Origin: Escherichia coli
Lineage (GTDB): Bacteria; Pseudomonadota; Gammaproteobacteria; Enterobacterales; Enterobacteriaceae
Assembly (NCBI RefSeq): GCF_051903065.1
Contig: NZ_CP178438.1
Direction: 5' to 3' (one strand)
Length of the DNA: 64,000 nucleotides
Part shown: positions 4,791 to 57,844 of the stretch, in pieces
How the letters are laid out: every line of letters starts with the position of its first letter
How positions within the stretch are numbered: position 1 is the stretch's first letter
Position numbers and translations under genes: made by a program
The notes under the pieces: model-generated
Told to the model about the DNA's origin: nothing
Database searches by the model: none
What the model saw: the letters and a program-made list of their open reading frames with translations, nothing else

Positions 4791-5615
4791 ATGAACGAAC
4801 ATCATCAACCTTTTGAAGAGATAAAACTGATTAATGCAAACGGAGCAGAACAATGGTCAGCAAGACAACTTGGGAAACTACTGGGTTATTCAGAGTATCG
4901 TCACTTTATACCTGTATTAACGCGCGCCAAAGAAGCCTGTGAGAACAGTGGTCACACAATTGATGACCATTTCGAGGAGATCCTCGATATGGTCAAAATT
5001 GGCTCAAATGCCAAAAGAGCATTAAAAGACATCGTACTCTCCCGCTATGCCTGTTACCTGGTAGTACAAAACGGCGACCCTGCGAAACCGGTCATTGCGT
5101 CAGGGCAGACTTATTTTGCTATCCAGACCCGACGGCAGGAGCTTGCTGACGATGAAGCATTTAAGCAACTTCGTGAAGACGAAAAGCGTCTGTTTCTGAG
5201 AAATGAGTTGAAAGAACATAACAAACAATTGGTTGAGGCAGCACAGCAAGCTGGGGTAGCGACAGCTACTGATTTCGCCATATTTCAGAATCATGGTTAC
5301 CAGGGGCTGTATGGTGGATTAGATCAGAAAGCTATTCATCAGCGGAAGGGGCTGAAAAAGAATCAGAAGATCCTGGATCATATGGGTTCAACAGAACTGG
5401 CGGCTAATCTCTTTCGAGCTACCCAAACAGAAGAAAAACTCAAGCGGGATGGCGTGAATTCAAAACAGCAAGCTAATACCACACACTTTGACGTGGGTAG
5501 CAAGGTGAGGCAAACCATTCAGGAACTTGGCGGAACCATGCCTGAGGAGTTGCCGACCCCGCAGGTCAGCATCAAGCAGTTGGAAAACAGTGTAAAAATT
5601 ACAGAGAAGAAATAG
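4791..5615 (+). CDS. dinD: DNA damage-inducible protein D
   Basis: Translation from ATG at 4791 (MNEHHQPFEEIKLINANGAEQWSARQLGKLLGY...) matches DinD; preceded by a LexA box. Confidence 0.92.
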   Translation: MNEHHQPFEEIKLINANGAEQWSARQLGKLLGYSEYRHFIPVLTRAKEACENSGHTIDDHFEEILDMVKIGSNAKRALKDIVLSRYACYLVVQNGDPAKPVIASGQTYFAIQTRRQELADDEAFKQLREDEKRLFLRNELKEHNKQLVEAAQQAGVATATDFAIFQNHGYQGLYGGLDQKAIHQRKGLKKNQKILDHMGSTELAANLFRATQTEEKLKRDGVNSKQQANTTHFDVGSKVRQTIQELGGTMPEELPTPQVSIKQLENSVKITEKK

Positions 5616-9432: not shown

Positions 9433-11541
9433 TTGTATCTGTTTGAAAGCCTGAATCAACTGATTCAAACCTACCTGCCGGAAGACCAAATCAAGCGTCT
9501 GCGGCAGGCGTATCTCGTTGCACGTGATGCTCACGAGGGGCAAACACGTTCAAGCGGTGAACCCTATATCACGCACCCGGTAGCGGTTGCCTGCATTCTG
9601 GCCGAGATGAAACTCGACTATGAAACGCTGATGGCGGCGCTGCTGCATGACGTGATTGAAGATACTCCCGCCACCTACCAGGATATGGAACAGCTTTTTG
9701 GTAAAAGCGTCGCCGAGCTGGTAGAGGGGGTGTCGAAACTTGATAAACTCAAGTTCCGCGATAAGAAAGAGGCGCAGGCCGAAAACTTTCGCAAGATGAT
9801 TATGGCGATGGTGCAGGATATCCGCGTCATCCTCATCAAACTTGCCGACCGTACCCACAACATGCGCACGCTGGGCTCACTTCGCCCGGACAAACGTCGC
9901 CGCATCGCCCGTGAAACTCTCGAAATTTACAGCCCGCTGGCGCACCGTTTAGGTATCCACCACATTAAAACCGAACTCGAAGAGCTGGGTTTTGAGGCGC
10001 TGTATCCCAACCGTTATCGCGTAATCAAAGAAGTGGTGAAAGCCGCGCGCGGCAACCGTAAAGAGATGATCCAGAAGATTCTTTCTGAAATCGAAGGGCG
10101 TTTGCAGGAAGCGGGAATACCGTGCCGCGTCAGTGGTCGCGAAAAGCATCTTTATTCGATTTACTGCAAAATGGTGCTCAAAGAGCAGCGTTTTCACTCA
10201 ATCATGGACATCTACGCTTTCCGCGTGATCGTCAATGATTCTGACACCTGTTATCGCGTGCTGGGCCAGATGCACAGCCTGTACAAGCCGCGTCCGGGCC
10301 GCGTGAAAGACTATATCGCCATTCCAAAAGCGAACGGCTATCAGTCTTTGCACACCTCGATGATTGGCCCGCACGGCGTGCCGGTTGAGGTCCAGATCCG
10401 TACCGAAGATATGGATCAGATGGCGGAGATGGGTGTTGCCGCGCACTGGGCTTATAAAGAGCACGGCGAAACCAGTACTACCGCACAAATCCGCGCCCAG
10501 CGCTGGATGCAAAGCCTGCTGGAGCTGCAACAGAGCGCCGGTAGTTCGTTTGAATTTATCGAGAGCGTTAAATCCGATCTCTTTCCGGATGAGATTTACG
10601 TTTTCACACCGGAAGGGCGCATTGTCGAGCTGCCTGCCGGTGCAACGCCCGTCGACTTCGCTTATGCAGTGCATACCGATATCGGTCATGCCTGCGTGGG
10701 CGCACGCGTTGACCGCCAGCCTTACCCGCTGTCGCAGCCGCTTACCAGCGGTCAAACCGTTGAAATCATTACCGCACCGGGCGCTCGCCCGAATGCCGCG
10801 TGGCTGAACTTTGTCGTTAGCTCAAAAGCGCGCGCCAAAATTCGTCAGTTGCTGAAAAACCTCAAGCGTGATGATTCTGTAAGCCTGGGCCGTCGTCTGC
10901 TCAACCATGCTTTGGGTGGTAGCCGTAAGCTGAATGAAATCCCGCAGGAAAATATTCAGCGCGAGCTGGATCGCATGAAGCTGGCAACGCTTGACGATCT
11001 GCTGGCTGAAATCGGCCTTGGTAACGCAATGAGCGTGGTGGTCGCGAAAAATCTACAACATGGGGACGCCTCCATTCCACCGGCAACCCAAAGTCACGGA
11101 CATCTGCCAATTAAAGGTGCCGATGGCGTGCTGATCACCTTTGCGAAATGCTGCCGCCCTATTCCTGGCGACCCGATTATCGCCCACGTCAGCCCCGGTA
11201 AAGGTCTGGTGATCCACCATGAATCCTGCCGTAACATCCGTGGCTACCAGAAAGAGCCAGAGAAGTTTATGGCTGTGGAATGGGATAAAGAGACGGCGCA
11301 GGAATTCATCACCGAAATCAAGGTGGAGATGTTCAATCATCAGGGTGCGCTGGCAAACCTGACGGCGGCAATTAACACCACGACCTCGAATATTCAAAGT
11401 TTGAATACGGAAGAGAAAGATGGTCGCGTCTACAGCGCCTTTATTCGTCTGACCGCTCGTGACCGTGTGCATCTGGCGAATATCATGCGCAAAATCCGCG
11501 TGATGCCAGACGTGATTAAAGTCACCCGAAACCGAAATTAA
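9433..11541 (+). CDS. spoT: Bifunctional (p)ppGpp synthetase/hydrolase SpoT (TTG start)
   Basis: 702 aa; first codon is TTG at 9433 (ttg tat ctg ttt gaa = LYLFE read as MYLFE); HD domain, synthetase, TGS and ACT regions recognisable. Confidence 0.95.
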   Translation: MYLFESLNQLIQTYLPEDQIKRLRQAYLVARDAHEGQTRSSGEPYITHPVAVACILAEMKLDYETLMAALLHDVIEDTPATYQDMEQLFGKSVAELVEGVSKLDKLKFRDKKEAQAENFRKMIMAMVQDIRVILIKLADRTHNMRTLGSLRPDKRRRIARETLEIYSPLAHRLGIHHIKTELEELGFEALYPNRYRVIKEVVKAARGNRKEMIQKILSEIEGRLQEAGIPCRVSGREKHLYSIYCKMVLKEQRFHSIMDIYAFRVIVNDSDTCYRVLGQMHSLYKPRPGRVKDYIAIPKANGYQSLHTSMIGPHGVPVEVQIRTEDMDQMAEMGVAAHWAYKEHGETSTTAQIRAQRWMQSLLELQQSAGSSFEFIESVKSDLFPDEIYVFTPEGRIVELPAGATPVDFAYAVHTDIGHACVGARVDRQPYPLSQPLTSGQTVEIITAPGARPNAAWLNFVVSSKARAKIRQLLKNLKRDDSVSLGRRLLNHALGGSRKLNEIPQENIQRELDRMKLATLDDLLAEIGLGNAMSVVVAKNLQHGDASIPPATQSHGHLPIKGADGVLITFAKCCRPIPGDPIIAHVSPGKGLVIHHESCRNIRGYQKEPEKFMAVEWDKETAQEFITEIKVEMFNHQGALANLTAAINTTTSNIQSLNTEEKDGRVYSAFIRLTARDRVHLANIMRKIRVMPDVIKVTRNRN

Positions 11542-49890: not shown

Positions 49891-53719
<3,829 letters not shown>

Positions 53720-53864
53720 TTCCACATCCTCTTTTCTCAATTCTGTAAGTAGGAAGCCTGATTGGTTATGCGGCAGGCCTGGAGCGAGGATAGGAAGATG
53801 CGATCGGCAGAACATGACGACCCAATGGGATTCGTGATCGCTTTCATGCTTTTCGTTGGGCGGT

Positions 53865-53898
53865 AGAGATCTACGTTTTCGCGAAAAAGTAGACCTCT
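53865..53898. promoter_or_regulatory. 34 bp near-perfect palindrome agagatctacgttttcgcgaaaaagtagacctct in the glvC-yidP divergent intergenic region (candidate operator)
   Basis: Reverse complement differs at 4 of 34 positions; centred on the perfectly palindromic core ttttcgcgaaaa; sits between divergent glv operon and GntR-family yidP. Confidence 0.45.
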
Positions 53899-54014
53899 GT
53901 GAGCACAGGTACACAGCATCGAACACATCTTTAAAAATAAGATGTTTTTTCAATCGATTAAGCAGAACTTGTGGGCGCATTACCCGGGCTTGCAGGCAAA
54001 AAAGAGATCTAGAG

Positions 54015-54731
54015 ATGATCTACAAAAGCATTGCGGAGCGGTTAAGAATTCGACTTAATTCCGCAGATTTCACGCTAAACAGCCTTCTTCCCGGTGAAAA
54101 AAAGCTGGCGGAAGAGTTTGCGGTATCGCGGATGACCATCCGTAAAGCCATTGACCTGCTGGTAGCGTGGGGGCTGGTGGTCCGCCGCCACGGCAGCGGC
54201 ACTTACCTGGTGCGCAAAGATGTGCTGCATCAAACCGCCAGCCTGACCGGGCTGGTGGAGGTGTTAAAACGTCAGGGAAAAACGGTCACCAGCCAGGTGC
54301 TGATTTTTGAAATCATGCCTGCGCCTCCGGCCATTGCCAGCCAGTTACGGATTCAAATCAACGAGCAGATCTACTTCTCCCGTCGCGTTCGTTTTGTGGA
54401 AGGGAAACCGCTGATGCTGGAAGACAGCTATATGCCGGTAAAACTGTTCCGTAATCTTTCGCTGCAACATCTGGAGGGGTCGAAGTTTGAATATATTGAA
54501 CAAGAGTGCGGGATTTTGATTGGCGGTAATTATGAAAGCCTGACGCCGGTGCTCGCCGATAGACTGCTGGCGCGGCAAATGAAGGTAGCGGAACACACGC
54601 CACTGCTGCGGATCACCTCGTTGTCATATAGCGAGAGCGGGGAGTTTTTGAATTATTCAGTGATGTTCAGAAATGCCAGCGAATACCAGGTGGAGTACCA
54701 TTTACGGCGACTCCACCCGGACAAGAGTTAA
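54015..54731 (+). CDS. yidP: GntR-family transcriptional regulator YidP
   Basis: 238 aa from [49 protein letters not shown]... (HTH plus UTRA-like effector domain). Confidence 0.9.
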
Positions 54732-57125: not shown

Positions 57126-57539
57126 TTAGTTGATTTCGATACGGCGCGGTTTTTTCGCTTCCGGAATCACGCGTTCGAGATCGATATACAGCAAACCATT
57201 TACCAGGTTAGCGCCACGAACATGAATGTTCTCAGCTAACTGGAATTTGCGTTCAAAGTTGCGTTCAGCGATGCCCTGGTACAGATAGGTGCGCTCTTTT
57301 TGTTCGTCGGCGTGAGCACCTTTCACCACCAGCAGATTATCCTGGGCGGTAATTTCCAGTTCGCTCTCAGCAAAACCAGCCACAGCGATAGCAATGCGGT
57401 AATGGTTTTCGTCTACCAGTTCAACGTTATACGGAGGGTAGCCGCCATTACTCTGGCTCTGGTTGTTTTCTAAGTGGTTAAACAAACGGTCAAATCCAAT
57501 AGCAGAACGGTAAAGCGGGGATAAATCAAAGTTACGCAT
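57126..57539 (-). CDS. ibpA: Small heat shock protein IbpA
   Basis: 137 aa [56 protein letters not shown]... Confidence 0.95.
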
Positions 57540-57844
57540 AATCAATAGCTCCTGAAATCAGCGAGAATGTAAGACCTTCCACAATGGACAGGTCAGGTAG
57601 CCAGAACACCCATCAGGCGCGTCCTCATCGGCTACGATGTAAAAATGGGTCTGGAAATGAACTTTTCAAGCCTTATCAGCGGACTTTTTTTTGCAGTTTA
57701 TGGTCTATTGCATAGACTGAGGGGGCAGCACGAAACGTTAAAGTGCGATAGCCGCCACAGTGCGACGTAATGATGATGTTATTTTCAGCAAGGGATCGCT
57801 ATAACTCATCAGGCCAACACCCACGATCAACAGATGAATTTATT

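Follow-up and report, generated by a model that had tools for sequence, protein, structure and literature searches.

The window analysed here is a 64-kb stretch of Escherichia coli DNA that carries the glv operon and, transcribed divergently from it, the regulator gene yidP. The glv operon occupies 50781-53719 on the minus strand and consists of a gene for a PTS EIICB protein (52103-53719), the equivalent of glvC/glvB of K-12, and a gene for a family-4 6-phospho-alpha-glucosidase (50781-52103); both were assigned by RefSeq and by the Pfam domains PTS_EIIC, PTS_EIIB and Glyco_hydro_4. Whereas the operon of K-12 is split and its glvG is a pseudogene, the glvC-glvA operon of the window is intact. 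The yidP gene lies at 54015-54731 on the plus strand and encodes a regulator with a GntR winged helix-turn-helix (Pfam, E = 6.8e-21) and a UTRA domain (E = 1.2e-30), in agreement with RefSeq, and the presence of both domains makes YidP a member of the HutC subfamily. A second regulator gene, yidL, adjoins glvA in E. coli, and its product has AraC-type domains (Pfam). In E. coli K-12, YidP is still classed with the transcription factors whose function is unknown (PMC4797297; PMC9308461), and a literature search yielded no YidP operator, transcription start, regulon, binding or expression data. The orthologues carry the JGI name 'GntR family glv operon transcriptional regulator', a name based on gene context.

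The intergenic region between glvC and yidP spans 53720-54014 (295 bp) and contains, at 53865-53898, the sequence agagatctacgttttcgcgaaaaagtagacctct. A repeat search resolved it into two arms of 17 nt (53865-53881 and 53882-53898) with a gap of 0 nt, which are 88% complementary and form 15 of 17 pairs. The earlier note, which drew attention to this palindrome, had counted four mismatches in 34 nucleotides and placed it between the divergent glv operon and yidP; the count is correct and is equivalent to two mismatched pairs of 17, and the location agrees with the gene coordinates of the RefSeq annotation. When all centres in the 64-kb window were scanned, this was the sole palindrome without a spacer to reach 15 or more of 17 pairs. 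After the window had been shuffled 300 times with its dinucleotides preserved, such palindromes numbered 0.003 on average, and any was found in only one shuffle. The palindrome is therefore unusual for random intergenic sequence, as had been supposed, and its uniqueness in 64 kb together with the shuffle mean led us to reject a chance origin. The second-best zero-spacer palindrome of the window, ATGACCATTTCGAGGAGATCCTCGATATGGTCAA at 4963-4996, has 14 of 17 pairs. RefSeq also annotates a ROSE RNA thermometer upstream of ibpA at about 57533-57605 of the window (9534-9606 of locus L001), which is unrelated to the palindrome.

An identical 34-mer is present in K-12 MG1655 (NC_000913.3, 3863749-3863782). 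At the sensitivity of BLAST, the intergenic region was found in 4278 of 5426 complete E. coli genomes, at exactly one place per genome. In the other 1148 genomes (approximately 21%), glvC, the intergenic region with the proposed operator and yidP are lost together, and the genomes without the glv locus match the query only from yidE onward. The single occurrence in each of the 4278 genomes, and the single site per locus described below, led us to reject a repeat element such as REP/BIME or a transposon end.

Conservation at orthologous loci had been named in the earlier note, beside binding by YidP or YidL, as a point on which an operator would stand or fall. A search for YidP with one genome per species gave 77 loci, and footprinting was carried out on a non-redundant set of 64 orthologous intergenic regions between glvC and yidP, in genera ranging from Escherichia to Proteus. 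The divergent arrangement of glvC-glvA and yidP is kept in essentially all orthologous loci, and in about 70 loci altogether, and the palindromic element was found at the same position in 64 of the 64 regions, where it coincides with the best or second-best palindrome in most; it is kept as well in the paralogous, Serratia and Erwinia-type clusters described below. From the centre of the element to the start of glvC there are 160-165 nt, or 205-206 nt in regions with an insertion; the distance to the start of yidP is 60 or 135 nt. A block of 89 columns around the palindrome aligns without gaps, except for one gap in one Proteus sequence. A symmetric position weight matrix (PWM) gave 18-47 bits at one site per locus and less than 10 bits elsewhere in approximately 740 kb; because the matrix was built from the very sites scored, only the background figure is independent. 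No second full operator was found with this matrix near the glvC promoter or elsewhere in the loci. Weak recurrent half-site matches inside the glvC coding sequence (below 8 bits) were taken as homology noise. Distant YidP homologues (Tenericutes, Atopostipes; 31-32% identity) have neither glv neighbours nor a site and are for that reason uninformative.

Inspection of the 64 sequences revealed a defined anatomy of the element. The left half-site, GAGATCTAC at 53866-53874 on the plus strand, contains the GTCTA columns (50-54; 1.55-2.0 bits), reads GTTGTCTAC or GAGGTCTAC in most genera, and matches the NagR unit GTGG-TCT-A. The right half-site at 53889-53897 is an inverted copy of the left one, GAGGTCTAC on the minus strand, and contains TAGACA (53890-53895; columns 71-76; 1.2-2.0 bits); 16 nt separate GTCTA from TAGAC. 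The five positions of the left GTCTA are conserved in 58, 64, 63, 64 and 61 of the 64 sequences and those of the right TAGAC in 58, 52, 63, 64 and 59; in the window itself the left arm reads ATCTA and the right arm TAGAC. The spacer (53875-53888) consists of a T-tract at 53876-53879 (1.5-2.0 bits), a centre at 53880-53883 and an A-tract at 53885-53888 (1.2-1.5 bits), and the stretch GTCTAC-TTTT that joins the left arm to the T-tract (53869-53878) has 1.1-2.0 bits per column. The centre, CGCG in E. coli, varies freely, with 0.04-0.24 bits. The perfect core ttttcgcgaaaa, on which the palindrome had first been centred, is thus perfect as described, but as the key part of the element it fails, being its least conserved part. 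The pattern of conservation suggests that the working parts are the GTCTA/TAGAC arms and the T- and A-tracts, which look functional, rather than the CGCG core.

The twofold symmetry of the element was also evaluated, counted over 15 'pairs'. Symmetric cells accounted for 74.8%, compared with 71.0% in column shuffles, none of 500 of which reached the observed value, and with 40-52% in slid registers. Pairs 1-5 change on both sides; for example, the Proteus arms read GATCTA...CAGATC, in which pair 5 is changed from G:C to A:T. Pair 10 is asymmetric, with C conserved on the left only, and is unpaired in 52 of 63 sequences. Variation was also found within E. coli: most strains have GTAGACATCT with 14 of 17 pairs, the window shares with K-12 the form GTAGACCTCT, in which 15 of 17 pairs match, and O157:H7 (L082, Z570) has AGAGATCTACTTTTTCGCGAAAAAGTAGATCTCT, which differs from the window by G53875T and C53894T and is a perfect 34-bp palindrome (17/17).

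Changes on both sides of a pair, as well as a conserved stem with a variable loop, would also be expected if the element acted as an RNA or DNA hairpin, be it a stem in a leader, a target for processing or a cruciform, and not as a protein-bound duplex. The RNA fold of the minus strand is in accordance with that (-14.2 kcal/mol, z = -3.4), but that of the plus strand is unremarkable (z = -1.4), and the wobble patterns are inconsistent between the strands. Moreover, the sequence is conserved beyond the need of pairing, since 6 of the 15 pairs are invariant or change on one side only, and pair 10 is mostly unpaired. There is no T-run or terminator at the palindrome, and Rfam gave 0 matches at E<=1. 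We therefore regard the hairpin as very improbable. An intrinsic terminator or a known RNA family was rejected on the same Rfam result and on a scan that returned 0 terminator-like sites.

The half-sites were then compared with those of the closest relatives of YidP of solved structure, NagR/YvoA of Bacillus subtilis (2WV0, 4U0V, 4WWC; E = 3e-24) and DasR. The recognition helices are nearly identical (VSRMTIRKA in YidP and ISRMTVRQA in NagR), and in the alignment Arg48 and Gly69 of NagR correspond to Arg39 and Gly60 of YidP, and Arg38 to Lys29. In the NagR operator, GTGGTCT|AGACCAC, two units abut, and the DNA-binding domain reads G-7 by the wing Gly69, G-5 by Arg38 and G-4 by Arg48 of 5'-GTGGTCTAGACCAC-3', with backbone contacts at -3 to -1; T is frequent at -5 in native NagR sites (PMC4333415). 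The commonest arm of the YidP element, G-T-T-G-T-C-T-A, is a complete unit of the NagR type, with the right arm as its inverted copy. G-4, the base for the conserved Arg, and G-7, the base for the Gly of the wing, are found in the left arm of 58 and 50 of the 64 sequences, respectively. The window is an exception, with A at -4 of its left arm, where Arg48 of NagR reads G.

The spacing of the half-sites is clearly different. The distance between recognition tetrads is 6 nt in NagR, 5 in FadR and 6 or 8 in AraR (PMC4333415), so that it is 5-8 nt in every HutC, FadR and AraR complex cited, whereas in the palindrome the tetrads are separated by 24 nt, which exceeds the spacing of the NagR dre by 18 bp. 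The dre of NagR/DasR and the predicted YidP site share the regulator fold, the recognition helix, the unit G-n-(G/T)-G-T-C-T-A, the inverted repeat symmetry and a location in the region that controls a catabolic operon of a sugar PTS; however, the DNA-binding domains touch on the dre, whereas the YidP site would hold them apart across phased T- and A-tracts. A similar conclusion is drawn from the HutC consensus NyGTMTAKACNy, whose halves are joined without a gap and which varies at the periphery, the centre being highly conserved (Rigali; Suvorova et al., PMC4494728). The palindrome lies in the control region of a HutC-type regulator gene and its presumed target operon and has the inverted GTMTA/TAKAC half-sites of the consensus (with M = C and K = G), but the halves are split by 16 nt and the centre is variable. 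It therefore agrees with the consensus in the identity of the half-sites and departs from it in their contiguity. The conservation in 64 of 64 regions and the match of the arms to the HutC half-site support the operator proposed in the earlier note, and from these sequence comparisons the palindrome is probably the operator of YidP, a site of the HutC type with half-sites split by 16 bp. This assignment is further supported by the 15 of 17 pairs, the conserved position, the PWM score, the twofold symmetry and the joint loss of operon, operator and yidP in E. coli. Against it stand the wide spacing of the half-sites, the A at -4 in the left arm of the window and the Lys of YidP in place of Arg38.

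Another protein could also occupy the element, for instance YidL, a ROK repressor of the Mlc/NagC type attracted by the TTTT-N-AAAA core of the palindrome, or a further factor. Operators of Mlc and NagC are AT-rich quasi-palindromes of 23 bp with TT-N9-AA near the centre, and other PTS genes are under the control of Mlc. In E. coli the core, TTTTCGCGAAAA, bears a loose resemblance to this pattern, but the YidP element has invariant outer arms at +/-9 to 13 from a freely varying centre, the reverse of what a compact ROK site of 23 bp would show. YidL, which had been suggested beside YidP as a binder, has in its favour the position of its gene next to glvA in E. coli. However, yidL adjoins glvA in only 13 of the 64 loci that carry the element, so that YidL is not a conserved partner, and direct repeats are usual for AraC-type proteins. 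In addition, the arms change along with the clade of the adjacent HutC regulator, as described below. Binding by one of these proteins in place of YidP is considered unlikely, and YidL in particular an unlikely partner.

Co-variation of the arms with the regulator was seen in a group of paralogous loci. Locus L040 (Citrobacter/Scandinavium) has, beside glvC, a second YidP-like regulator of 55% identity, and relatives of this paralogue were collected from C. rodentium, a contig of the Kluyvera georgiana type and a metagenome contig, together with orthologues of the Serratia and Erwinia types. The layout in these clusters is glvA-glvC, a CRP-like site, GT[CA]T[AG]-N16-[TC]A[GT]AC and the regulator gene. 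The arms of the paralogous clade are CCTGT(A/C)TA...TA(T/G)ACAGG, in which M of the HutC consensus is A and K is T, and positions -7 and -6 differ from those of the YidP clade in both arms; the wing is RKNG or RKSG, compared with RRHG in the YidP clade. In these alignments the regulator clade co-varies with both half-sites, among few independent lineages. A simple recognition code, suggested by L040, in which Met40 to Thr in the helix accompanies C to A in the arm, was rejected because the C. rodentium paralogue has an SRMT helix and nevertheless GTATA arms. In some Citrobacter, Scandinavium and Kluyvera genomes, the second yidP paralogue is in tandem with canonical yidP or beside a second glvA-glvC pair (L040, 3267-4735; L085, 2501-3983; L087, 2501-3962; L086, 2501-5693). 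This arrangement suggests that the whole glv module was replaced or duplicated.

The next conserved feature of the intergenic region is a putative CRP site at 53830-53851. Its core, cGTGA-tcgctt-TCAtg (53833-53848, centre 53840.5), follows the TGTGA-N6-TCACA pattern with GTGA and TCA cores and a spacer of 6 nt; all 64 sequences have the same GTGA and TCA, and the spacer between them varies. Members of the paralogous clade have TGTGA as the left half. The distance between the centres of the CRP-like site and the palindrome is 41 bp in every orthologue, with no indels, and 40 bp in L040. The CRP-like site is located 34-35 nt before the left arm, as measured in the window and in the C. rodentium, metagenome and Serratia contigs.

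A strict scan of the region for promoters found none, and an anchored sigma-70 scan gave three positionally conserved candidates. As these are weak and mutually incompatible, the promoter geometry below is a matter of inference. Candidate (a), on the minus strand at 53787-53815, has -10 TATCCT (53792-53787) and -35 ATGTTC (53815-53810) with a spacer of 17 nt and would start glvC transcription at about 53780; in the alignment consensus -12T, -11A, -8C and -7T are conserved in at least 90% of the sequences. This candidate would place the CRP-like site at approximately -60.5 and the centre of the palindrome at approximately -101.5. Candidate (b), also leftward, uses the left arm as -35 (TAGACA), with a 16-nt spacer and -10 AACCAT inside the CRP-like site. 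Candidate (c), on the plus strand at 53850-53877, has -35 TTTTCG (53850-53855), a 16-nt spacer and -10 TACGTT (53872-53877) and would start yidP transcription at about 53884. Its -10 hexamer lies inside the left arm and is TACTTT in most genera, with T53, A54 and T58 (numbered by the 89 alignment columns) conserved in 61-64 of the 64 sequences.

These candidates bear on a further explanation of the conservation, namely that the arms are core elements of divergent promoters kept for contact with RNA polymerase, TAGACA, when read outwards, resembling the -35 element TTGACA and TACTTT serving as -10. Candidate (b), the top-scoring positionally conserved leftward candidate (median 5.1 bits), would fit this explanation, as would the rightward candidates that employ TACTTT or TAGACA. 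However, all the scores are low, in line with the strict scan, and the start of candidate (b) would fall inside the CRP-like site. The match to the NagR half-site extends over eight positions, of which -7 to -4 lie beyond any hexamer, and twofold symmetry is not needed for a promoter, yet the flanks co-vary symmetrically and O157:H7 has a perfect palindrome. For these reasons we doubt that contact with RNA polymerase is what conserves the arms. Operators often overlap promoters, and the promoter and operator readings are compatible and can coexist.

Two hairpins were observed elsewhere in the region. A minus-strand stem at 53754-53780 (AGGCCUG/CAGGCUU) begins at the predicted glvC +1; its energy is unremarkable (z = -1.1), and in other genera it is kept as GGCC...GGCC around a variable loop, into which 43 nt are inserted in Klebsiella and Cedecea, and two of its pairs show compensatory changes. 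On the plus strand, between the palindrome and yidP, an AT-rich hairpin at 53916-53956 (stem 53925-53931/53939-53945, then TTTTTT; -6.8 kcal/mol, z = -3.3) resembles a weak terminator of the intrinsic type, or an attenuator, within what may be a leader of yidP, and lies within a segment of approximately 75 nt peculiar to the 'long-class' intergenic regions.

The only recurrent extra matches of the half-site PWM were found at the start of yidP, where the half-site-like direct repeats GAGATCTAG and ATGATCTAC (54004-54023, plus strand), 11 bp apart, cover the ribosome-binding site and the start codon. AGAG(G/A)TCTA at -12 to -4 of yidP has 1.46-2.0 bits, and codons 1-3 are (G/A)TG ATC TAY, with ATC as codon 2 in 64 of 64 sequences. 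These repeats may be auxiliary sites, or they may reflect constraint on the ribosome-binding site and the coding sequence. In the window, the left-arm 9-mer AGAGATCTA recurs exactly at 54003-54011, and GATCTAC recurs over codons 1-3 of yidP. E. coli and E. albertii have A for G at the same position in the left arm and in the copy at the ribosome-binding site.

Assuming that the palindrome is the YidP operator, we can describe how it might work, although the detailed promoter logic is proposed with much lower confidence than the operator itself. The site is composed of two inverted NagR-type units, G-(T/A)-(T/G)-G-T-C-T-A, with the T-tract and the A-tract approximately 10 bp apart in the spacer. 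Without inducer, YidP would occupy both arms. A single dimer might do so with its DNA-binding domains splayed and the DNA bent intrinsically, or two dimers might lie next to each other. Bent DNA is suggested by the phased tracts. For NagR, a displacement of the DNA-binding domains by approximately 70 Å in the effector-bound form and a 'mixed' binding mode, with one specific and one non-specific contact, have been described (PMC4333415). Such mobility makes a splayed dimer an option, and in the arrangement with two dimers the mixed mode would apply to each of them. A phosphorylated alpha-glucoside bound to the UTRA domain would release YidP, an effector suggested by the enzymes of the operon.

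With regard to yidP itself, the predicted site covers approximately -20 to +15 of candidate promoter (c), and YidP would therefore repress its own gene by occlusion. Simple repression of glvC is less easily envisaged, since the best candidate for a glvC promoter lies approximately 100 bp downstream of the site. The operator is about four helical turns (41 bp) from the CRP-like site, which would itself be centred at approximately -60.5 of this candidate, and with both sites upstream of the promoter the control of glvC-glvA would be by interference with CRP or by upstream contacts and not by direct occlusion. YidP would act from upstream of a class-I-like CRP site, disturbing CRP or the alpha-CTD contacts, a mode of action that agrees with the fixed phasing and with a promoter geometry that is shared. 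It is conceivable, though we hold the idea only tentatively, that YidP represents a HutC binding mode undescribed so far, in which a dimer spans half-sites 18 bp wider than those of the NagR dre, or a pair of dimers binds, and serves as an anti-activator phased with CRP and not as a mere roadblock.

Arrangements of this kind are known in other families. In nagE-nagBACD of E. coli, two full NagC operators with a CRP site between them act by DNA looping, and the OE/CRP arrangement of gal may be compared. The glv locus resembles these systems in the combination of repressor and CRP-like sites, their fixed helical phasing, the divergent sugar-PTS region and the position of the repressor site upstream of the activator, whereas the repressors there are of the ROK and LacI families and here of the HutC subfamily, and each locus here has one full site together with the half-site-like repeats at the yidP start. 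CytR, a dimer of the LacI family with flexibly tethered domains, accepts long and flexible half-site spacing and acts as an anti-activator together with CRP. The unusually long spacing is shared with the CytR operators; however, CytR sits between two CRP dimers, whereas the one CRP-like site of the glv locus is at a distance of 41 bp, and the N16 spacing is fixed at every locus examined.

These results provide a precise candidate operator for YidP, located in K-12 at 3863749-3863782, together with a position-weight model, and they point to CRP as a probable co-regulator. The PTS module concerned, for alpha-glucosides, is found intact in many strains of E. coli and in most Enterobacteriaceae. 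Since searches that assume a compact palindrome of 8-16 bp would miss sites of this type, the spacing tolerance of these regulators matters for operator prediction in so large a family, and the split NagR-type half-sites provide a natural test of the spacing tolerated by the flexibly tethered DNA-binding domains of HutC proteins. Should the splayed state prove to be the one that binds DNA, the YidP branch would have inverted the allosteric logic of HutC regulators.
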